Positions 61 to 11,488 of a DNA stretch of 64,000 nucleotides are shown here, one piece after another. The notes under the pieces are model-generated. The model was not told the DNA's origin and did no database searches. It saw only the letters and a list, made by a program, of their open reading frames with translations. Source of the stretch: Bacillales bacterium UBA1709 (GTDB lineage Bacteria; Bacillota_I; Bacilli_A; RFN20; UBA1709); assembly GCA_002317215.1 (NCBI GenBank), contig DCJD01000010.1:8486-72485 (forward strand), in the 5' to 3' direction. A program made the translations under genes and the position numbers. The first letter of the stretch is position 1; each line of letters starts with the position of its first letter.

Positions 61-1083
61 TTAATATTTCATATATACTTTTTCAGCAAAACCTAATATA
101 TTATTAATCTTATATTCTGAATTATCTACTTTAATAGTTCCATTAAATCTACCAAATACTTGATGTTGCAAAGTTTTAATTACTAAGATATCGGTATTAG
201 TATAACGATCAATAATTGGAGTGAATTCTAAGTCAATTGATTTATCTTTACTGGTAAATTTCCATTTATCTAAGAATTTACATTCGCCATTTTCATCAAC
301 TGGTATTTCAAATTTAACATCTTCTAATTTATAGGCTTTATCTTTATAGAAGAACATATTCTCACTAGCAGCACTAGTGTTTCCAAAACCATATCCTAGA
401 TTAAATCCAATAGGGTTATTTTTATCGTCTACACCATTTAAACTACTCCAATACCAAGTATTTTTATATGTCCATACTCCTCTACCCCAATCAAGTACGC
501 CATTACAATCATCTAAAGATTCGATTCTATTGCCAAGCTTAACAACACCACTTGCTTTTAGACAATTAATCTTTTGATTATAGTAGAAATGTTTATCTTC
601 ATCCCAAGGGGTTGCAATTACCATTGTATCTTTAATTGGTTGTTCTAAGATAACATCTAATTCAAAGTCTTCTTCTTTATTAAATTTCTCATATTTAACA
701 ACTAGGTGTCTTTTCTTACCGTCATTATAGAATTTAAAATCAAATCCCTTACCAAAATGACTACAATCACCTATTTTACTGGTTTCTGGTAAAGACAATT
801 TTCCTTTACTTAAAGGACCCATTTTAGATTTGGTTACTTCCCATATTCCTTTATAATCTAGAAAACTTGCTGTACATAACCACATATATGAGTTATCAGC
901 AATAGTAACAGCTACTCCAAAATCATCATTACCAATATAATAATAGTCCCATTCTTTAATTCTATGCCATTTAGCCTTAATATCATTTCTATGATATTCT
1001 TTTACTAAATCAAAAGCATATCCAGCTTCATTTAGATTTCCTGCTTCGTTTAATAGTCTTCCTTTAGTTAACTTATGTTGCAT
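61..1083 (-). CDS. DUF2804 domain-containing protein (start moved to the Met of MQHKLTKGRL, which has a GGAGGAA RBS 7 nt upstream)
   Basis: ORF-track protein. Family assignment is by recalled similarity to DUF2804 proteins. There is no signal peptide. It sits downstream of apbE in the same orientation. Confidence 0.5.
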   Translation of the reverse strand: MQHKLTKGRLLNEAGNLNEAGYAFDLVKEYHRNDIKAKWHRIKEWDYYYIGNDDFGVAVTIADNSYMWLCTASFLDYKGIWEVTKSKMGPLSKGKLSLPETSKIGDCSHFGKGFDFKFYNDGKKRHLVVKYEKFNKEEDFELDVILEQPIKDTMVIATPWDEDKHFYYNQKINCLKASGVVKLGNRIESLDDCNGVLDWGRGVWTYKNTWYWSSLNGVDDKNNPIGFNLGYGFGNTSAASENMFFYKDKAYKLEDVKFEIPVDENGECKFLDKWKFTSKDKSIDLEFTPIIDRYTNTDILVIKTLQHQVFGRFNGTIKVDNSEYKINNILGFAEKVYMKY

Positions 1084-1084
1084 A

Positions 1085-2239
1085 TTATAGTTCCTCCTTA
1101 TTAATAATATTTGAATTAAAATCACCATTCATAGTGTCTTTAAAGCCTTTAGAATAAACACAATTATATTTATTTAAATCTAATTCATCATTAGAATAAT
1201 ATGGTTTTAATAATAGATAATCTATTTTCACGTTATAAGTATTTTCTATCTTATTTAATAAAGTTTTTGCTTCATTATCATCATTACAATTAAATATAGC
1301 AGTTGATAATGCATCTAGAAGAGTACTAGTAGCATTACTTGAGATTAAAGATACACTTCTATATGTTGGATTAGAATAACCAGTATTAGGATTTAAAATA
1401 TGTGAGATCCATGGATTTGATTTATCATATGAGAATATATTATCAGCGCTGGTAGATATTTTATAATCTTTATCAATTTCACTAATACAAATATATTCAT
1501 CTGAATTTGGTAAATTAAATCCTATATTATATTTACCATTATCTACATAAGGGTTATTTCCTACTAGACCAATAGTAGATTCACCAAGATTAATAATAGA
1601 GGAGGTATTTAAAGATTTGATATGATTATAAATCTTCTCTCCAATATATCCTTTTCCAATTCCACCAATTGATATTATTGGTTGTACTTCGTTATATTTA
1701 TTAATTGTTATTGATCTTGTGCTATCATCAAAAACAATTATATTATCTATATCATTATAACTTACTATTCCGTTTAATATTGTGCTAATTTCAGAAGAAG
1801 TAGGCATATTAGTATTTGTTGATAAATAAGATGAATATGCATCAATTAATCTTCCAATACATACATTAAACTTACCATCTGTTATCTTGCATAATTCAAC
1901 TGATGTTTTAATTAAATCATATAAATCATTATTACAGTTATTTATATATCCGCTATCATTTAAACTCTTTAAATTCTCTATTCCATCATAATCATGATAA
2001 CGATCAAAATAATGGGACATTGTTGTAATATCATTAATAATTGTATTCTTATTTTGCTGTAGAATATTATTATCATAGAAAGTAATTTTAGAAATAGTAT
2101 TCATTGGAAAAACATATTCATCTTGAATAAACTCTCCAGGTACAGTGAAATAATATTTTTTCTTATCATTATTAGCATTATTATTTTTGCAGGAGGCCAA
2201 TAATAAGATTGATACTAATCCAATTAATTTTCTTCTCAT
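1085..2239 (-). CDS. apbE: FAD:protein FMN transferase (ApbE family) lipoprotein, copy 1
   Basis: Lipobox LLLASC. The ApbE signature is ISIGGIGKGY (compare the GGIAKGY motif of flavin transferases). Confidence 0.75.
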   Translation of the reverse strand: MRRKLIGLVSILLLASCKNNNANNDKKKYYFTVPGEFIQDEYVFPMNTISKITFYDNNILQQNKNTIINDITTMSHYFDRYHDYDGIENLKSLNDSGYINNCNNDLYDLIKTSVELCKITDGKFNVCIGRLIDAYSSYLSTNTNMPTSSEISTILNGIVSYNDIDNIIVFDDSTRSITINKYNEVQPIISIGGIGKGYIGEKIYNHIKSLNTSSIINLGESTIGLVGNNPYVDNGKYNIGFNLPNSDEYICISEIDKDYKISTSADNIFSYDKSNPWISHILNPNTGYSNPTYRSVSLISSNATSTLLDALSTAIFNCNDDNEAKTLLNKIENTYNVKIDYLLLKPYYSNDELDLNKYNCVYSKGFKDTMNGDFNSNIINKEEL

Positions 2240-2253
2240 ATAATAATTATAAA

Positions 2254-2290
2254 ACGAGTAATAAAAAAAGTCAGTATATATACTGACTTT
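2254..2290. terminator. hairpin aaaagtcagtatatatactgacttttt downstream of the lipoprotein gene
   Basis: Inverted repeat plus T-tract. Confidence 0.5.
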
Positions 2291-2314
2291 TTAGCATACA
2301 AATAATATTAATTA

Positions 2315-3496
2315 TTATTGAGCTGCTTGAACTGCTGCATAAACATCAGCGTTTACACCAACGAAACCAGCTTTGCCAAATGCTTTAACATAGTTAGTTT
2401 GAGTAATTGTACAACCACTAATGTTTGTGAATGACATAGCACCGTATGAACCGTTAGTAACGTAATCTGATACAGTAACATCTTTACCTTCAACGAATTT
2501 TTCCATTGCTTCTGCTTGTTCATTCCATTCGCCACCGCCAACGATAACGCCTTTAGCAGCTGAAGTTGACTTCATACCATAAGCAGTACCTAATGCTTTC
2601 TTAGAAACATAAGCACCGTTGCTATAGTATTTAACATTTGTAACAACTGATGGAACTAATGTACTTGAATCAGTTGCATAAGTAACTACTAATGCATCGA
2701 ATTGAGCTGCAACAACTTTGTTACCTTTTAAGATAACTCCACACATATCGAATCCGACTTCTGTGCTTGGTAATCCATAGTTATAAGCAGGACCGTATTC
2801 ACAGCCTACACCAGTTGTAACTTCAGTATCTAAATCATATTTCTTAGATGCTTTGTGTTCACTAGCATATTTGATTGCTTTTACGTATTCGCCTAAGTTG
2901 ATTGTACAACCAGCTTTTAATCCAGCATCAGTTGCATAACCAGTTGCACCAACTGCTGCTTCAATTTCTGCAACAGTTTTGCCTTTACACCATGCTGAGA
3001 ATGCTTCGATTTGAGTATCTGCTTCTGCACCACCAGCGATAACGCCTTTAGCAGCTGAAGTATTCTTCATACCATAAGCATCACCTTGGTATAATTTTGA
3101 TGCTTGAGCATCTGCACTGTGAGTTTTTACACCATATACAGTTTCTTGTGTATCAATTTTATCTGCTGTACATTTGTGGTTATCAACGTGAGTTTGTGTC
3201 CAAGTAACTTGTGCACTTGTTCCTTCAACTTTACTTTGAACGCAGTCAAATCTAGCTGAAACAATTTTCTTAGTAACAGTGTTGAATGCGGCTACACAGT
3301 AAGTAACATCAACTTGTTCAGAAGCGAATGCAGGTGAATCTCCATTAGTCATGTTTGTAGCTGTTTTAGCTGAGAAACCTAAACCAATTTGCATCATTGG
3401 AGTAACTTTAGCATCTTCTTCTTTTTTACCACAACTTGCTAGTGATAAACCTAGAACTGCTGCACCAAATAATGCGACATATTTTCTAAATTTCAT
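2315..3496 (-). CDS. secreted lipoprotein with two tandem FMN-binding-like domains (PplA-like candidate flavinylation substrate)
   Basis: Signal peptide with lipobox LSLASC. There is an internal duplication: YGMKNTSAAKGVIAGG / YGMKSTSAAKGVIVGG are Gly-rich starts. Each repeat ends with LKAGCTINLGEYVKAI / NISGCTITQTNYVKAF, which resembles the D-x-x-SGAT-[IV]-TS flavinylation motif of FMN_bind domains. Confidence 0.55.
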   Translation of the reverse strand: MKFRKYVALFGAAVLGLSLASCGKKEEDAKVTPMMQIGLGFSAKTATNMTNGDSPAFASEQVDVTYCVAAFNTVTKKIVSARFDCVQSKVEGTSAQVTWTQTHVDNHKCTADKIDTQETVYGVKTHSADAQASKLYQGDAYGMKNTSAAKGVIAGGAEADTQIEAFSAWCKGKTVAEIEAAVGATGYATDAGLKAGCTINLGEYVKAIKYASEHKASKKYDLDTEVTTGVGCEYGPAYNYGLPSTEVGFDMCGVILKGNKVVAAQFDALVVTYATDSSTLVPSVVTNVKYYSNGAYVSKKALGTAYGMKSTSAAKGVIVGGGEWNEQAEAMEKFVEGKDVTVSDYVTNGSYGAMSFTNISGCTITQTNYVKAFGKAGFVGVNADVYAAVQAAQ

Positions 3497-3590
3497 TATT
3501 ATATTTCTCCTTTCAATTTAGATAATCTAATTTTACTATAAATATAGTAAAAAAGAAAAGAGTATTTTACAATTTTTATATGTTATGAAT

Positions 3591-4113: not shown

Positions 4114-4542
4114 TTAACCTACTGATATTACATCATCTATTGATTCACTTTCGATACTAACAATTACTCCATTAGGAATGCAAACAATACTTTTACCTTT
4201 CTTTGAAATATATCCATATTTCTCGCAAGTATGATTAGGACAAGTAATATTGTGAACTCTAACTCCTTTATCAATTGATATTTCAACTGTAAAATCCCCG
4301 TATAAATCAGGGTAATCTTCCTTTTTAATAACATATACCATATCTTCTTTTAATTCATCGTAATTAATTTTAGCGATACTAGTATTTTGATATTGGATAT
4401 TAATAATTCTATCCCCATTGCTATTAGCTTTATAATTGACAATTATTATTGAAGAAACCGAAATAAGTATTGCTAATATAGCAATAAGAATATCAAATAT
4501 ATTAAACTTTAAAGAAAAATTATTTTTCATAAACACCTTCAA
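4114..4542 (-). CDS. NusG domain II-containing membrane-anchored protein
   Basis: N-terminal TM helix. Cys motif CPNHTC...C. Size and gene context (between ApbE and the Gx transporter) match this family. Confidence 0.45.
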   Translation of the reverse strand: MKVFMKNNFSLKFNIFDILIAILAILISVSSIIIVNYKANSNGDRIINIQYQNTSIAKINYDELKEDMVYVIKKEDYPDLYGDFTVEISIDKGVRVHNITCPNHTCEKYGYISKKGKSIVCIPNGVIVSIESESIDDVISVG

Positions 4543-5788
4543 TACCGTTTGCTAATTCTAAGGTATTATTAACGTTATTAGTATAATGAACTTTTAAAGA
4601 ATAATCTTTAAGATTTCCATTATTATATTTTTGAACTAAATAAAATGTATCAAATTGATAGTTTAAGTCCTTTCTTAATTTCATTCCTTCCTCAATACTC
4701 ATATTCATAAGTGCAGTTGATAAAATATCAAGATAAGCACTTGATAATGAATATGAAAGAATTGAGACAGATCTATAATAAGATTCTGGATATCCAGTAA
4801 ATGGATTAATAATGTGATGTCTATTTAAAACTAAAACTCCATCAATAACACAATAATGTTTATTAACTGTGTAGTTACCACTTGTTGAATAGTTAAACTG
4901 ATTTGAAACTTTAATGGAAAAAGCGCTCCCATCAAAACTATTTGGATCTCTTGTTTCGATACTCATTCCACCAGATTTTTTAGTATAAATTGGCTCAGAT
5001 AAACTTTCTAATGAACTTCCACCGCTAAATAATATCCCATCTTTATATCCATTATCAATTAGTTTTTGTTTAACTTTATCTGTTGCATATCCTTTTGCAA
5101 TACCACCTAAACTGATATATGGTCTATATGATGATGAATTTAAAATATTGTTAAACTTAACTGAATAGTTTTCTTCATTAAAAGTTAATTGATTATTGTA
5201 ATTTTCAAGGGTATTTGGAATAGCTGAAACAAGATTTTCCAGGCGTGTTTTAGCATCATTATTAACGTATGGGTCATAATCATAGACATCCATATAATTA
5301 TTATATGAACTGAAACACCCTTCCCAAAAATCTGTTAAACCACCTGTAAAAATATTAAACATACCATTGGTTAATGAATATGAACTATAGCAAAATTTCA
5401 GACAATCATATAAATCTTTATCAATTTGAATTTCTTCATTAGTTCCATAACTTTCATTGATTACTTTTAAATTATTAATCAAATTTCCATTTGAATCAGC
5501 ATAATAATAATGACGATCAAATAATTTGTGGAACCTAATTATTTCATCTGTATAAATATTAATAATATTGTTTTTAATTTCGTCGGCATTTTTATTTTTC
5601 TTATCAAAAAAATATCTCACAACCATTGAAGTATTAAAAGGATCAACTTGGTGTCCTATTGTACAATTTGTATCGTCATAACCAATGATTTCATCTTGAA
5701 TTGTAAATGATTGCCAAGACCCTTTTCTATCACATGATGTTAAACATAAAATCGAAATTATACTTAACAATAAAACTTTCTTTTTCAT
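4520..5788 (-). CDS. apbE: FAD:protein FMN transferase (ApbE family) lipoprotein, copy 2
   Basis: Lipobox LCLTSC. ApbE motif ISLGGIAKGYATD. Confidence 0.75.
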   Translation of the reverse strand: MKKKVLLLSIISILCLTSCDRKGSWQSFTIQDEIIGYDDTNCTIGHQVDPFNTSMVVRYFFDKKNKNADEIKNNIINIYTDEIIRFHKLFDRHYYYADSNGNLINNLKVINESYGTNEEIQIDKDLYDCLKFCYSSYSLTNGMFNIFTGGLTDFWEGCFSSYNNYMDVYDYDPYVNNDAKTRLENLVSAIPNTLENYNNQLTFNEENYSVKFNNILNSSSYRPYISLGGIAKGYATDKVKQKLIDNGYKDGILFSGGSSLESLSEPIYTKKSGGMSIETRDPNSFDGSAFSIKVSNQFNYSTSGNYTVNKHYCVIDGVLVLNRHHIINPFTGYPESYYRSVSILSYSLSSAYLDILSTALMNMSIEEGMKLRKDLNYQFDTFYLVQKYNNGNLKDYSLKVHYTNNVNNTLELANGIEGVYEK

Positions 5789-5828: not shown

Positions 5829-5849
5829 AAGGAGTTATATTAACTCCTT
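5829..5849. terminator. hairpin aaggagttatattaactcctt downstream of the rnfB-like gene (terminator or attenuator between the rnf operon and apbE)
   Basis: Inverted repeat followed by T-rich tract on the minus strand. Confidence 0.45.
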
Positions 5850-5857
5850 AACTTTAA

Positions 5858-6184
5858 CTATTTAATATCGTTTAATACACTTCCATCAGGACCTGGTGTA
5901 GATTTTAGATATTCAATTATTTCAGCTAATTTTTCTTTCTTAAGTGGTTTACATAAAGAAACTTGTTTATTTGAACCACTAATAATAGAATCTGCCATAC
6001 CTGAACATCCAGGATATCCGCATCCGCCACAGTTTGCTCCTGGTAACATTGAAAGTAATACTTCTAATCTTGGATCAGCTTTAACTGATAAATATTTATC
6101 TGCAACTGCTAATAATAATCCAAGGAATGCTCCAATGCCAAGTGTAACTACTAACGCTTTAATAATTACAATAATTGTTTCCAT
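5858..6184 (-). CDS. rnfB: RnfB-like subunit, truncated: membrane anchor plus N-terminal 4Fe-4S (FeS) domain only, with no polyferredoxin domains
   Basis: The sequence LPGANCGGCGYPGCSGMADSIISG...C matches the RnfB N-terminal Fe-S domain pattern. At 108 aa it is far shorter than typical RnfB. Confidence 0.6.
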   Translation of the reverse strand: METIIVIIKALVVTLGIGAFLGLLLAVADKYLSVKADPRLEVLLSMLPGANCGGCGYPGCSGMADSIISGSNKQVSLCKPLKKEKLAEIIEYLKSTPGPDGSVLNDIK

Positions 6185-6185
6185 T

Positions 6186-6353
6186 TTAGTTCTCCTTTTT
6201 ATGATTAGCGCAGGACGTTATTTGACATCCCTCGCAATTTTCTGATAAATTAACGCATCCTTCTGGTTTAGGTGTTCTTTGGTTTAATACATAACTGAAT
6301 ATGAACAAACCACTACATATTCCTAAAGCCACAATGGATAATATAATTTTCAT
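6186..6353 (-). CDS. 55-aa membrane micro-protein with C-x6-C-x2-C-x4-C motif (MKIILSIVALGICSGLFIFSYVLNQRTPKPEGCVNLSENCEGCQITSCANHKKEN); not in the ORF track
   Basis: Hand-translated. Its ATG overlaps the rnfA stop (TAATG). Its 3' end carries the AAGGAG RBS and an ATG overlap for the rnfB-like gene, so it is translationally coupled on both sides. Confidence 0.5.
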   Translation of the reverse strand: MKIILSIVALGICSGLFIFSYVLNQRTPKPEGCVNLSENCEGCQITSCANHKKEN

Positions 6354-6964
6354 TACAAGCTTAATCCCATAAAGGCTGCAAATGCTAGAGCCATTAAGGA
6401 TGTTGTAATAAGAGCAATGCTGTTTCCTTTGAATGCTTCTGGAGTTTCTTTATTGCTATCAATTCTTACTCTGATGAATGAGAATAGAGTAATAACTAAC
6501 ATATAGCCAAGAGAAGTGAAGATAGCATAAACTAACATATTGATAAATGTATATTCAAATGTTATAACTCCATTTAATTCTGTGTATGCAGCAACTTTTT
6601 GTGCAACGAATAATACAACACAGTTTGTTGTAATTAAAGGTAAATAAATACCTAAAGCTTTATAAAGAGACACAAGATATTTCTTCATAAAGAATTCAAC
6701 GAATTGAACGAATGCTGCGATAACTAAGATAAATATAACTAATTGTAGGAAATCTAATCCAAGTGGAACTAAGATATATTTTTCTAAAGCGAAACATATA
6801 ATAGCACTCATAGTAACTACGAAAGTAAGTGCTAATCCCATACCAATAGCATTGCTAGGTTTTTTAGAAATACCTAAGAATGGACAAATTCCTAAGAAAT
6901 TAGAAAGAATAATATTACTTGAGAATAAACAAGCAATAATGATTGCAAATATACTCATATTCAA
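6353..6964 (-). CDS. rnfA: Rnf complex subunit A
   Basis: Motifs GICPFLG and IYLPLITTNC. Six-TM protein of RnfA/NqrE type. Confidence 0.8.
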   Translation of the reverse strand: MNMSIFAIIIACLFSSNIILSNFLGICPFLGISKKPSNAIGMGLALTFVVTMSAIICFALEKYILVPLGLDFLQLVIFILVIAAFVQFVEFFMKKYLVSLYKALGIYLPLITTNCVVLFVAQKVAAYTELNGVITFEYTFINMLVYAIFTSLGYMLVITLFSFIRVRIDSNKETPEAFKGNSIALITTSLMALAFAAFMGLSL

Positions 6965-6970
6965 TTCCTC

Positions 6971-7837
6971 CTATTTACTTTCTGCAGCTTTTGCTGCTTT
7001 TTTATTTGCGATTGCTTTTCTAGCGCCATTAAAGCCAGCAACGCAGAAACCAAGTACTAAGAAAGCACCTGATGGTTGAGCTAATAAACCAATTTCATAT
7101 GGTGAAGAGAAAGATTGATTTGCTGCGAGTTTTAATGCATCAACAACTTCTTTAGTACCATATGTTTCATCAGTAATAACTTTTAATTCTTTTGTAATCT
7201 TGCTTAGATTATAACCATTATTTGAATATTCAGAGATTAATTCTTTTAATGAATTAACATCACCAATTTTAAATTCGGTGATTAAAGCATCATAAACAAC
7301 TTTATCTTCTTTTGCTAAAGGAATAATTCTTGTAATAGAAGTAACGTTTCCTTCAAGATCTTTCATTGTGATAACACCAGTACCTAAGATTTCTCTTAAT
7401 GCAGCAACAATTGTTAATGCAAAGAAGAAACCAAGGGAGATACCAATGGCATCCATGATAGAATTTACTACACTATTTTTAGAAGCGTAGCTTTCAGCTC
7501 TTCCTAAAATAATACAGTTAACAACGATTAATTGTAGATAACTTCCTAGAGTTGTATAAATTCCAGGAGCATAAGCGTTTACGAATAATGAAACTGCTGT
7601 AACAATAGTAGCAATAATAACAATGTATACAGGAATTCTTATCTCACTAGGAGTAAATTTAGCAATTAATGAAATAGAAATATTTGACATTAATAATACT
7701 AAGAATACACAAGCACTCATACCAATAGCACTGTAAATTGAACTACTAGTTGCTAATACTGGACACATTCCAAGGAATAAGACAAATGTTGGGTTTTCAT
7801 TTATAATCCCGTTTAAAATAATTTTTAATTTTTTCAT
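6971..7837 (-). CDS. rnfE: Rnf complex subunit E with an inserted soluble domain of about 80 aa before the last TM helix
   Basis: GMCPVLA motif. RnfE/NqrD-like TM pattern. The insertion is MKDLEGNV...ANQSFSSPYE. Confidence 0.7.
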   Translation of the reverse strand: MKKLKIILNGIINENPTFVLFLGMCPVLATSSSIYSAIGMSACVFLVLLMSNISISLIAKFTPSEIRIPVYIVIIATIVTAVSLFVNAYAPGIYTTLGSYLQLIVVNCIILGRAESYASKNSVVNSIMDAIGISLGFFFALTIVAALREILGTGVITMKDLEGNVTSITRIIPLAKEDKVVYDALITEFKIGDVNSLKELISEYSNNGYNLSKITKELKVITDETYGTKEVVDALKLAANQSFSSPYEIGLLAQPSGAFLVLGFCVAGFNGARKAIANKKAAKAAESK

Positions 7838-7853
7838 ATCTTATACTCCTTTC

Positions 7854-8387
7854 CTACCATGTCATAGCCATATAGTCAGCACGACATAATTCAATAGCTT
7901 TTGCTAAAGGTTCTCCAGTAGCTGATTTTCCAGCCATAGCAGAAGTGTAAGTTGAATACTCTAGAAGTTTTGTTTGCGCGCTTAAACCACTAACAAGATC
8001 TCCCATAGATTCAATTAAATCTTTACCATATCCAGAGTCTTCGCCGTTTGCGATATCTGAATATCCAACGTATTTGTTATCTGCGAAAGCAACAACAAAT
8101 TTAATAGTATTATTTCTTCCGGAAATAGACATGTTGTAACAAGCGCCATTAACAGTTTTGTTAACAACTTTCTTTGTACATCCTTCAAAATTAGGAGTAT
8201 CAACTACTTCAAAATCTGAAGCTGATGCATTATATGCTGAGAATAATTCAACATATGCTTGATTTGATTTAGCTAATTCGTTGCTTGCAATTTTCTTTTC
8301 AGTTGATTTATAAACAACTGCTAATAATAATCCGCAAGCTCCTACTACTGTACCTAAGAATAGGGGTAATTTTAAAAACTTATTCAT
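7854..8387 (-). CDS. rnfG: Rnf complex subunit G (FMN-binding subunit, divergent)
   Basis: N-terminal TM. Its position between rnfD and rnfE. A C-terminal GKSAT motif sits where SGAT is normally found. Confidence 0.6.
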   Translation of the reverse strand: MNKFLKLPLFLGTVVGACGLLLAVVYKSTEKKIASNELAKSNQAYVELFSAYNASASDFEVVDTPNFEGCTKKVVNKTVNGACYNMSISGRNNTIKFVVAFADNKYVGYSDIANGEDSGYGKDLIESMGDLVSGLSAQTKLLEYSTYTSAMAGKSATGEPLAKAIELCRADYMAMTW

Positions 8388-8399
8388 ATTTAATTCCTC

Positions 8400-10160
8400 C
8401 TATTTACTTTCTAATGCATATAATTGATATGCTTTATTTACAAGATCTTTAATGATTTGTGGCGAGTATGTAGATTTTGAAGCAGTAGTAGCTTTACCGC
8501 AAACTAGTGCATCAACAGCAGCTTGACCATTGCCAACTACTTGTTCGCTAACAAACTTACCATAATATGAAGTATCAGTTCCAGCCATCTTTTCATCAAT
8601 GAAACCAACACCTTGAACCTTATCTTGTTTATCAATAACAACTAATCCCACTACATTTAATGGAATTGGGTATCCTTCAGCTGAGATGCTTGCTTTGCTA
8701 CCCATTGCTTTTTCATAATCAATAACGTAAGCATATGCAACTACTTCATCACCATTTTTAACAAGATATTTACTATCTAATGTAGATTCATTACTGAATG
8801 TATAACCTACTTCGACGTCATCACTATATTTGCAATATCTTTCATTTTCATTTAAAGCTACTGCTGATTGTAATTGTGCATCTTGTGCATAATTTAATCC
8901 GTCTTTATTAACGACACCAATGTGAGTTACTTGACCGCTTGCCATAAATCCTAAGCAGATTGCAGCAATAACAACACCTAATCCTAAACCAGCAACTTTA
9001 ACTGGATAGTGTCTATTTGTCTTGCCTTTAATTGCAGCATCAATAGCAGGGCTAATCAAGTTTGCTAAAGCAATTGAGAACATTGCACCTTCTGGATAAC
9101 CGCCTTTAATTCTAATTAAAACAGTCATAAATCCAGCAAATATTGCACAGATGCTCTTTCCTAAGCTTGAAGTTGGTCCAGTAACTGGATCAGTTAGCAT
9201 AAATACCGCACCAAAGGCAACGCCGCCTAAACCGATGCTAGCGACTAAATATGCTAATACGCTATTGCCAGTTAATGTAGCAATAACAACAGCTGATAAT
9301 GCAACAGTTCCTAAGTAGAATGCTGGTGTTCTCCAGTTAATAACTCCAAGAACTGATAATACAATACCTAAGCCTAAAATTAATACAGTGAATGTTTCGC
9401 CTAAAGCACCAACATATTCACCGAATAATATATTCTCTAAAGTGAAACCTTCAATTAATGAATTTTCAATAACAGCAGCACCTACAGGTCTTGTAGTGTA
9501 AATCCAAAGTTGCGAATTGTTATATACACTAGTAATTGTAGAACCTGTAGCAGCATCAACACCAACAGCAGTTGCTGCTTCGCCTGCTAATTCTGCTGCA
9601 GAAACAGTTTGGATGATTTCAGGAGTTGCTAATGCACTTCCGAAACATAATCCAACGAAAATTCTTGCCATAATTGCAGGATTAAAGATGTTTTTACCAA
9701 AACCACCAAATACATTTTTGCAAACTAATGTTGCAAATACTGAACCAACAATAATTACATAGTAGCTAGTAAATACTGGTAGAGTTAAGGCAAAAATAAT
9801 CCCGGTAATATAAGAATAGTTATGAACTATTGTATGAATGATATCTTTACCTAAAGATATATTCTTGTGTGTTTTATGAACACATAATGTATGGATAACA
9901 TCACATACAATTGAAGTAACAACAGCAACAATAACATTTAGTATTGCTTTTAATCCATAATCAACATATGGGAGTTGTTCTTCAATATCTAATTCTAAAT
10001 TTTCTAATTCAATATATTCATTAATCTTATCGGATAAATTAAAGTAATAAATAATTCCACTTACCCATACAACAACAAGTGCTGCAAGTAAGATTAACAT
10101 TATTTTTAATGTTGAATTTTTGCTTCTTTGATAAGGAGCAGGATTTGTTCTAAATGCCAT
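8400..10160 (-). CDS. rnfD: Rnf complex subunit D with a long C-terminal extension of about 200 aa
   Basis: NqrB/RnfD-like membrane core with VDAATGSTITS motif. The C-terminal extension contains VDALVCGKATTAS, which is FMN_bind-like. Confidence 0.7.
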   Translation of the reverse strand: MAFRTNPAPYQRSKNSTLKIMLILLAALVVVWVSGIIYYFNLSDKINEYIELENLELDIEEQLPYVDYGLKAILNVIVAVVTSIVCDVIHTLCVHKTHKNISLGKDIIHTIVHNYSYITGIIFALTLPVFTSYYVIIVGSVFATLVCKNVFGGFGKNIFNPAIMARIFVGLCFGSALATPEIIQTVSAAELAGEAATAVGVDAATGSTITSVYNNSQLWIYTTRPVGAAVIENSLIEGFTLENILFGEYVGALGETFTVLILGLGIVLSVLGVINWRTPAFYLGTVALSAVVIATLTGNSVLAYLVASIGLGGVAFGAVFMLTDPVTGPTSSLGKSICAIFAGFMTVLIRIKGGYPEGAMFSIALANLISPAIDAAIKGKTNRHYPVKVAGLGLGVVIAAICLGFMASGQVTHIGVVNKDGLNYAQDAQLQSAVALNENERYCKYSDDVEVGYTFSNESTLDSKYLVKNGDEVVAYAYVIDYEKAMGSKASISAEGYPIPLNVVGLVVIDKQDKVQGVGFIDEKMAGTDTSYYGKFVSEQVVGNGQAAVDALVCGKATTASKSTYSPQIIKDLVNKAYQLYALESK

Positions 10161-10174
10161 AAATTCTTTCCTCC

Positions 10175-11488
10175 TTATTTCTTAGGCATGCTAAGTTTAA
10201 CAATAGCCTTGCCTTTTTTAATTGTCTCAGTAACATCAATTTTACTTGGACAAATATAACTACACATTCCACATTCAATACAACTTAAGATGTCGTATTT
10301 TTTCATACCTTCTACATCTCTTTTTTCAGCTGCTTCTTTTAAAGCAACTGGTTGTAAATATGCTGGACAATGTGCAGTACATTTACCACATCTTAAACAT
10401 GCATCTGCTGTAGCTTGGCAATATTTTAAGACTGTGATTGATCCCATTTGCATTAACATTGGGAATGTATCAAATGATACTGCCTTTGAACACATTGGTC
10501 CACCAGGAATAAAGTTAATATCACCTTCTACTACTCCACCACAAACTTTAATTAATTCGTTTGATAGAGTACCAACAGGGATTAAAACGTTATGTGGGTT
10601 AACTATACCATTACCACTAACTGTAACTAATCTAGTTGCAACAGTCTTACCAGTTGATAAAGTTCTACCAAGTTCAATAACAGTAGTTGCATTATTAACA
10701 GCAACTTTAACTTCACTTGGTAATGTTTTATATTCCTTATGGAATATATTTCTAATTAAGACTCTTTCCCAACCCATTGGGTAAGCATCTTTTGTCTCAA
10801 CTAATCTAATATTAGGATGATCGGCTAATTTTGCTAATACAGCTTCTTTAACTTCATCTTTGTGAACCTTGATAGCAATGATAGCTTCTTTAGCACCGCT
10901 TGCTTTCATTAAGTATTCACAACCTAATAATAATTCGTCAACTCTTTGTTGCATTACGATAAAGTCAGTAGTTAAGTATGGTTCACACTCAATACCGTTA
11001 ACAAGTAATGTTTCAATTTCACTAGATCCATTATATTTAATGTAAGTTGGGAATCCAGCTCCGCCCATACCTACTAGACCAGCCTCTTTAATAGCATCTC
11101 TGATTTTTTCAGCACTATCTTTTAAAGTTACTGTCTTTAATGGTTTTTCCTCATCGTATTTACCATCATTTTCGATAACTACATGAGGGATTGCACGTCC
11201 AACTTGTGGAGAGAAAACATTTTCATTAGCAACAACTTTTCCACTTACTGAAGAGTAAATTGGAACATAGAAATCGCTTCTTAAACCAATTTTAGTTCCA
11301 ACCTTGACCTTGTCCCCTTCTTTTACATCAAATGTAATAGGTTTACCATTTGGGGCCATTGTTGGAAAATAAACTTTTTTAGGAGCATTATTTCCACTTA
11401 CTAATGAGATTATTTCTTCGTGCTTGGTTAATTCTTTGTGGCCATCAATATGTTTTTGGCCTTTTGAACTAAATAAACTCATTTTCAT
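10175..11488 (-). CDS. rnfC: Rnf complex subunit C (NADH-binding, two [4Fe-4S] clusters)
   Basis: GMGGAGFPT nucleotide-binding motif. Cluster motifs CLRCGKCTAHCP and CIECGMCSYICP. Confidence 0.85.
   Translation of the reverse strand: MKMSLFSSKGQKHIDGHKELTKHEEIISLVSGNNAPKKVYFPTMAPNGKPITFDVKEGDKVKVGTKIGLRSDFYVPIYSSVSGKVVANENVFSPQVGRAIPHVVIENDGKYDEEKPLKTVTLKDSAEKIRDAIKEAGLVGMGGAGFPTYIKYNGSSEIETLLVNGIECEPYLTTDFIVMQQRVDELLLGCEYLMKASGAKEAIIAIKVHKDEVKEAVLAKLADHPNIRLVETKDAYPMGWERVLIRNIFHKEYKTLPSEVKVAVNNATTVIELGRTLSTGKTVATRLVTVSGNGIVNPHNVLIPVGTLSNELIKVCGGVVEGDINFIPGGPMCSKAVSFDTFPMLMQMGSITVLKYCQATADACLRCGKCTAHCPAYLQPVALKEAAEKRDVEGMKKYDILSCIECGMCSYICPSKIDVTETIKKGKAIVKLSMPKK

Follow-up and report, generated by a model that had tools for sequence, protein, structure and literature searches.

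A divergent two-repeat lipoprotein of the FMN-bind2 type, a predicted ApbE substrate, encoded beside the rnf operon of Bacillales bacterium UBA1709

We analysed a stretch of 64,000 nucleotides from Bacillales bacterium UBA1709 (assembly GCA_002317215.1, contig DCJD01000010.1, positions 8,486 to 72,485; hereafter the window), in which a gene at 2315..3496 on the minus strand encodes a lipoprotein of 393 amino acids (aa) with two internal repeats, as seen from its open reading frame (ORF), the internal repeat and the alignments of its family. This gene probably encodes an FMN-bind2 lipoprotein that is flavinylated by ApbE, i.e. receives flavin mononucleotide (FMN), and the chances are about even that the protein serves as an electron-carrier step coupled to the Rnf complex encoded nearby. 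The original prediction, made from the letters of this DNA, described a two-domain FMN_bind-like extracytosolic lipoprotein acting as an ApbE substrate in the manner of PplA; this description is supported by a match of the family to the solved structure 2kzx, a weak but specific structural match to 3o6u, the conservation of the acceptor residue and the conserved gene order.

The relationship to Pfam FMN_bind was found through profiles of the family, which had to be built first because direct hidden Markov model (HMM) searches of the 393-aa protein, the check that the original prediction had named, were negative. An initial search retrieved 23 homologues (310–371 aa), all with a lipobox Cys and the two-repeat layout. 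Using the family profiles, we were able to identify one solved structure with a significant match, 2kzx_A (an uncharacterised protein of 131 aa), with E = 2e-9 for profile A1 and E = 3e-10 for the single-repeat profile A2. In the alignment of profile and structure, A-G-C-T-I of the family falls on S-G-A-T-I, Y-x-M on Y-K-M, and E-W-x-E-Q on E-W-H-E-Q, and with the Pfam FMN_bind model the aligned 69-aa segment of 2kzx itself reaches 25.9 bits, the gathering threshold being 22 bits. Weak FMN_bind matches were observed in 7 of the 24 aligned proteins (best E = 0.0011), the 393-aa protein giving none, and an hhalign comparison of A2 with the aligned RnfG proteins that clostridial loci of the family encode gave E = 4e-4, with AGCT again placed on SGAT. 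Via the family profile, the sequences give good support for homology of the family to FMN_bind.

The AlphaFold model of the full-length protein has a predicted local distance difference test (pLDDT) score of 77 and a predicted template modelling (pTM) score of 0.79, the latter a value that speaks for a defined placement of the two domains relative to each other in the model. Repeat 2 modelled alone reached a pLDDT of 83, and a Foldseek search with this model against the PDB placed 3o6u_C (CPE2226) at rank 2, with the whole target aligned, a probability of 0.90 and a target-normalised template modelling (TM) score of 0.55. Huang et al. (PMC11334425) took 3o6u as the reference structure for FMN-bind1. 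The models thereby lend weak structural support to homology with FMN_bind.

The genomic context of the relatives was taken from 80 loci, each from a different species and with flanks of up to 10 kb on each side (many loci without the expected neighbours are short contigs). These were kept out of at least 419 loci returned by a scan of one genome per species; all 80 are from Firmicutes, for the most part Clostridia and Erysipelotrichaceae of the gut or rumen, and among the carriers are Eubacterium coprostanoligenes ATCC 51222, Ihubacter and Butyrivibrio. The dominant gene order is rnfD-G-E-A-B, a pair of NusG_II and PF07456 genes (there or after apbE), the FMN-bind2-type gene, and apbE. An apbE gene is found within the flanks of at least 61 loci, usually directly downstream, rnf genes are found in about 46, and the NusG_II and PF07456 pair in about 45. 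PF07456 is the family of EetB, a FAD-binding subunit resembling the S component of energy-coupling factor (ECF) transporters, which in Listeria is needed for export of flavin adenine dinucleotide (FAD) and hence for the ApbE/FmnB-dependent flavinylation of PplA; EetB was found to co-localise with rnf in 572 genomes of Clostridia (PMC9973259). With predicted genes for a cofactor exporter, for one or two transferases and for a substrate, the locus would encode everything that a flavinylation module requires, and it adjoins a membrane redox complex with ApbE substrates of its own. In most relatives the cluster contains just one apbE, and the RnfG encoded there retains the canonical SGAT, so a dedicated ApbE is not needed.

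Each repeat holds one putative acceptor site. Motif 1 is A195-G-C-T198 (2903..2914, minus strand; codons GCT GGT TGT ACA), which is in register with the SGAT of 2kzx and RnfG, and motif 2 is S360-G-C-T363 (2408..2419, minus strand; codons AGT GGT TGT ACA), whose Thr is invariant in alignment A1; Thr198 and Thr363 are the predicted FMN acceptors. The repeats end in KAGCTI and ISGCTI, respectively, with the extended motifs G-L-K-A-G-C-T and T-N-I-S-G-C-T, so that relative to the canonical D-x-x-[S/T]-G-A-[S/T] the Gly at position -2 (counted from the acceptor at position 0) is retained and the Ala at -1 is replaced by Cys in both repeats. Among 548 repeats from 255 proteins aligned to the single-repeat model A2, 99% (544) have a hydroxyl residue at position 0 (517 Thr and 27 Ser). 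Position -2 is Gly in 344 repeats and Ser in 165, position -3 is Ala in 392 (72%), Ser in 112 and Thr in 31, and 60% (327) have Asp at position -6, as in the canonical motif. Y-x-M and E-W-x-E-Q are about 98% conserved across the same repeats. Judging from these alignments, the constrained residue is the hydroxyl acceptor, while the Cys at -1 is interchangeable with Val or Ala.

Several results weigh against a flavinylated FMN-bind2 protein. Pfam-A and NCBIfam scans of the 393-aa protein gave no relevant match even at E ≤ 1, and a phmmer search with this single sequence against PDB sequences returned nothing. A Foldseek search with the full-length model against the PDB gave nothing meaningful, the match of repeat 2 to 3o6u_C is weak (E = 0.035) and ranked just under a spurious one, and the hhalign match of A2 to RnfG has a probability of only 35%. 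Within the 393-aa protein, the Asp at -6 is absent from both repeats, and repeat 1 has E-A-D-T-Q where 97% of repeats show E-W. The assignment to FMN-bind2 was made by matching features of the family to the published description, and we found no flavinylation experiment on any FMN-bind2 protein or G-C-T site in the searchable literature.

Part of this would also suit an FMN_bind-like fold without covalent flavin, that is, a non-covalent binder of flavin or another ligand, a flavin-delivery chaperone or scaffold for ApbE or Rnf, or a structural accessory lipoprotein of Rnf: the motif A/S-G-C-T deviates from [S/T]GA[S/T] at two positions, the missing Asp and the blindness of the Pfam model to the 393-aa protein point the same way, and no experiment on the subtype was found in the literature searched. 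We consider such a protein unlikely. Without modification, there would be little reason for a hydroxyl to be kept in nearly every repeat of the family, most loci have apbE as the next gene downstream, and ApbE tolerates comparable changes in model substrates: according to the summary of Bertsova et al. (2019) in a 2025 review of ApbE (PMC12052999), Ala-to-Val at -1 of the canonical motif still left about 50% flavinylation, and the effects of Asp-to-Ala at -6 were only minor. Flavinylation at Thr198 and Thr363 is accordingly the reading that we prefer.

The Cys before the acceptor had been singled out as recurrent and unusual, with the suggestion that its conservation be checked in orthologues. 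It does occur in both repeats, and it is unusual when set against the canonical motif alone, but not within the family, where position -1 is Cys in 384 of the 548 repeats (70%), Val in 129 (24%) and Ala in 20 (4%); Cys is thus the majority residue, replaced by Val in about a quarter of the repeats. The family alignments indicate that the departure from canonical SGAT is a family rule, not an oddity of the 393-aa protein. Among the 238 two-repeat proteins, 164 have C/C at the two -1 positions, 42 have V/V, and 11 are mixed (C/V), and the V/V state holds through whole lineages. The mixed proteins and V/V lineages rule out an obligate Cys pair or an inter-repeat disulfide. Clostridial RnfG in the same clusters, a protein of two domains, keeps D-A-I-S-G-A-T-x-T, and in some lineages the RnfG motif is S-G-V-T, A-G-V-T or T-G-S-S.

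Because Cys exchanges with Val, its role is probably steric rather than chemical, i.e. that of a packing residue (small and hydrophobic; Cys, Val or Ala) and not of a catalytic or redox thiol. Position -1 also appears naturally tolerant, since RnfG of related genomes has Ala, Val, Ser or Lys there. A chemically functional Cys (a redox-active thiol, a cysteinyl-FMN in which the flavin ring gains a second covalent bond and the cofactor becomes bicovalent, or a thiol switch for tuning or gating the flavin) could appeal to the prevalence of Cys and of C/C proteins, and to the canonical FMN_bind proteins of the same genomes, which keep Ala at -1. We regard it as very improbable, given that Val or Ala takes the place of Cys while the adjacent Thr/Ser stays 99% conserved, that mixed proteins and whole V/V lineages exist, and that the same position in RnfG is so permissive.

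A search with profile A2 against 1.84 billion representative proteins (clusters at 50% identity) gave at least 2,061 clusters at E ≤ 1e-3, including 784 at E ≤ 1e-30. That the resemblance seen in the internal repeat and the motifs is due to chance, or that the ORF is not a real gene, has in its favour the absence of any database annotation and nothing further, and can be set aside as practically negligible in view of these matches, of the identical protein called on independent contigs (it is found on a JGI metagenome contig, sample 3300001598), of a gene order conserved across many species, and of an internal repeat with E = 1e-17. Out of the 255 proteins, 238 have two repeats, 13 have four, two have six, one has three and one has five. 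Among the best 120 matches in a database of 5.8 billion proteins, all source-named entries except one are called "hypothetical protein", and a precomputed FMN_bind domain (PF04205) is present in one. Longer members with four and six FMN-bind2 repeats include a 634-aa protein with four A-G-C-T sites encoded directly upstream of apbE (locus L062, 340-2244) and the proteins P0033 and P0034 (991 and 983 aa).

The repeat E-value comes from a BLASTP comparison of the first half of the protein with the second (44% identity over 88 aa). Repeat 1 (residues 33–214; 2855..3400, minus strand) consists of a beta-sheet segment, Y141-G-M143, E158-A-D-T-Q162 and the motif, as delimited by the HMM domain (35–213), the alignments and the AlphaFold secondary structure; repeat 2 (residues 215–393; 2318..2854, minus strand) consists of a beta-sheet segment, Y306-G-M308, E323-W-N-E-Q327 and the motif (HMM domain 224–377 and the single-domain model). 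The original prediction had two repeats of about 150 aa starting at AYGMK. Its two repeats hold; the start does not, as each unit begins earlier, with the beta-sheet segment (GLGFSAK... and TGVGCEY...), and neither does the length, which is about 165–180 aa. In the homologues the repeats are 134–160 aa long. The strings quoted for the repeats are all present: AYGMKNTSAAKGVIAGG (residues 140–156), AYGMKSTSAAKGVIVGG (305–321), LKAGCTINLGEYVKAI (192–207) and NISGCTITQTNYVKAF (359–374). We found that the segment AYGMK...GG, which had been taken as the counterpart of the N-terminal GxYxG...G of FMN_bind, sits between the beta-sheet and helix 1, and that comparison has to be given up; in the family alignments Y-x-M alone is conserved in this Gly-rich segment, and AAKGVIxGG is an insertion of which few homologues have the same. 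The 393-aa protein has lineage-specific insertions, and repeat 1 holds an insertion of about 28 aa. With at most 37% identity to any relative found, the protein is, by its sequence, a divergent family member. In the secondary structure of its model the strands are long, strands 1 and 2 are separated by a loop, and additional short strands precede helix 1, which agrees with the insertions described for FMN-bind2.

The protein is a stand-alone lipoprotein, as had been proposed. Its N-terminus is MKFRKYVALFGAAVLGLSLASC, and the signal peptide (MKFRKYVALFGAAVLGLSLAS-C22; 3431..3496, minus strand), read from the translation, ends in the lipobox L-A-S-C with Cys22 as the predicted lipidated residue. 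Cys22 is invariant in the 24 aligned homologues, and 216 of the 255 family members have a lipobox-like N-terminus. A GGAG ribosome-binding site can be read 8–9 nt 5' of the ATG. Of the promoter and terminator assigned to the gene by the original prediction, the terminator was recovered, as a hairpin with a T-run directly 3' of the gene (2265..2292, read 2292 to 2265 on the minus strand; 12-bp stem, -21.2 kcal/mol, z = -6.4), and the promoter was not: no sigma-70-like promoter on the minus strand scored above the scan threshold in the 94-bp upstream gap (3497-3590).

All genes of the cluster in the window are on the minus strand, in the order rnfC-D-G-E-A-B, apbE2, the NusG_II gene, the PF07456 gene, the two-repeat lipoprotein gene and apbE1. 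The gene does lie between two apbE genes, as first stated; both are real by Pfam and within 1.1 kb of it, and the NusG_II and PF07456 genes intervene on the upstream side. The directly downstream apbE1 (1085..2239, minus strand; Pfam ApbE E = 2.3e-33) encodes a lipoprotein ApbE paralogue and by synteny occupies the position of apbE in most relatives. Upstream are the gene for an EetB-family membrane protein (PF07456; 3591..4109, minus strand; E = 4.8e-32, with a weaker ECF_trnsprt match), which has an ECF transporter S component-like shape and is the predicted FAD exporter subunit, and the gene for the NusG_II-domain membrane protein that is always paired with it (4114..4542, minus strand; Pfam E = 4.7e-19). 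The second lipoprotein ApbE paralogue, encoded by apbE2 (4520..5788, minus strand; Pfam ApbE E = 1.1e-30), adjoins rnfB and has orthologues at the equivalent position in loci L001 (209 bits) and L063 (221 bits). These two are the only clear ApbE2 orthologues; by comparison of bit scores with ApbE1 and ApbE2, the apbE genes of the other loci are not assignable to either paralogue.

The rnf operon (5858..11488, minus strand; genes identified by Pfam) comprises rnfC (10175-11488), rnfD (8400-10160), rnfG (7854-8387), rnfE (6971-7837), rnfA (6353-6964) and rnfB (5858-6184). A terminator-like hairpin lies between rnfB and apbE2 (5829-5849, minus strand), because of which the flavinylation genes may be transcribed separately from rnf. 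No Ndh2 or demethylmenaquinone genes were found between positions 61 and 11488, where the adjacent genes are rnfCDGEAB. Directly downstream of apbE1 is a gene for a DUF2804 protein (61-1128, minus strand; Pfam E = 2e-118), whose start overlaps the end of apbE1.

We note some peculiarities of the Rnf proteins. RnfG of the window (177 aa) has no Pfam FMN_bind match, and A-G-K-S replaces S-G-A-T in it; the Ser of this motif, with Lys at -1, is likely the acceptor. RnfG of four relatives (L001:15207-15743, L063:16713-17255, L079:13051-13593 and L030:16524-17084) has T-G-S-S, S-G-V-T or A-G-V-T. With RnfG motifs varying in this way, the ApbE motif is conserved only loosely across these lineages. 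RnfD of the window has a C-terminal extension of about 190 aa (residues ~400-586) with a weak FMN_bind-like match under the cut-off (E = 0.0022, 19 bits); the extension is also found in L001 and L063, and shows no conserved SGAT-type motif, a T/S-Y-S segment alone being common. RnfB is only 108 aa long, with an N-terminal PF04060 Fe-S domain and without the ferredoxin-like 4Fe-4S domains of the ~265-aa RnfB of the clostridial loci, so that the manner of ferredoxin docking becomes a question; rnfB of L001 and L063 is similarly short (~105 codons). Clostridial RnfG in loci L002-L080 (e.g. L008:6375-7562 and L016:2464-3579) is 360–400 aa long with two, sometimes three, D-A-I-S-G-A-T sites. It corresponds to the "multi-flavinylated RnfG" of Meheust et al. 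(2021) (PMC8238504) and co-occurs with the FMN-bind2 lipoprotein.

With these predictions, the following mechanism can be proposed. The mature protein would be lipid-anchored on the outer face of the cytoplasmic membrane, and its two divergent FMN-bind2 domains would probably pack via their extended beta-sheets into one pseudo-symmetric unit. An ECF-type transporter, with the adjacent EetB-like protein as its substrate subunit, would export FAD, and one or both of the neighbouring lipoprotein ApbE enzymes would link the FMN moiety to Thr198 and Thr363 through a phosphoester bond. The resulting two-flavin carrier could then exchange electrons with the extracytosolic flavins of the adjacent Rnf (in RnfG and RnfD), and electrons may pass to an acceptor outside the cell, as with PplA in Listeria.

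In many anaerobes of the gut and rumen, energy conservation centres on the Rnf complex. To our knowledge, solved Rnf structures and current models of the complex contain no extracytosolic branch, and a two-flavin lipoprotein conserved between rnfB and apbE suggests that Rnf of these organisms has one. More speculatively, and with the odds against it as a whole, Rnf in gut and rumen Firmicutes could have in the FMN-bind2 lipoprotein an accessory module that has gone unrecognised so far. As an outlet or inlet with two flavins, this protein would connect the ferredoxin:NAD+ pump with external acceptors, and an ApbE that co-evolved with it would read its own version of the motif, [A/S]-G-[C/V]-T. 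The family is known from one description (2024) and has no name in databases, and neither Pfam nor NCBIfam detects it. Because its members go undetected and are labelled "hypothetical protein", the number of flavinylated proteins comes out too low in surveys by the FMN_bind model or by SGAT, and the natural tolerance of Cys or Val at -1 bears on ApbE specificity and on the engineering of flavin tags. For the window itself, the main gain is that a gene without annotation now has a correct functional one; the wider interest lies mainly in the conserved coupling between the family and Rnf, and in the gap that it exposes both in annotation and in the ApbE motif as currently accepted.

Among known systems, the closest description is that of FMN-bind2 (Huang, Meheust, Barquera and Light, mSystems 2024, PMC11334425), the only source in the literature searched in which we found the term. 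FMN-bind2 was found there by BLAST and described from AlphaFold models as a domain of about 160 aa with insertions between beta1 and beta2 and between beta3 and alpha1, often in two or four copies that pair through their extended sheets to form a pseudo-symmetric unit with two flavins; examples are the two-domain NTW96865.1 (Erysipelotrichaceae bacterium) and a protein with six copies from Hujiaoplasma, and no InterPro identifier is given. In the sections consulted, the motif is stated just as "[S/T]GA[S/T]-like", and we found there no mention of Cys or Val at -1 or of placement in rnf clusters. The protein of the window and its family share with FMN-bind2 the even copy number (two here; two, four or six in the family), domains of about 160–180 aa with one predicted ApbE site each, a beta-sheet extended by insertions relative to FMN-bind1, the lack of an InterPro or Pfam signature, and Firmicutes hosts including Erysipelotrichaceae; the 393-aa protein differs from it in the insertion of about 28 aa in repeat 1 and in having no Asp at -6.

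Pfam FMN_bind (PF04205, i.e. FMN-bind1, with RnfG, NqrC, CPE2226/3o6u and 2kzx) is likewise extracytosolic and associated with ApbE, with a beta-sheet followed by helices and the acceptor Thr in a loop just ahead of the last helix, and 2kzx also has the Y-x-M and E-W-x-E-Q signatures in common with the family. In contrast to FMN-bind1, the domain of the family is about 50 aa longer, paired and unscored by the Pfam model, and its motif is [A/S]-[G/S]-[C/V]-T instead of [S/T]-G-A-[S/T]. The multi-flavinylated RnfG of Clostridia resembles the family in providing an extra extracytosolic flavin site linked to Rnf, for which Meheust et al. (eLife 2021, PMC8238504) proposed the role of a side route to external acceptors, whereas the family is a separate lipoprotein without the N-terminal anchor of RnfG and with a different domain subtype and motif. 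PplA, from the extracellular electron transfer system of Listeria monocytogenes, is likewise a lipoprotein that contains two FMN-binding domains, and the neighbours of its gene encode an ApbE-type transferase (FmnB) and a FAD-export subunit of the EetB family. The likeness is one of architecture and context, and the co-encoded membrane electron source differs, being Ndh2 with demethylmenaquinone in Listeria and Rnf here.

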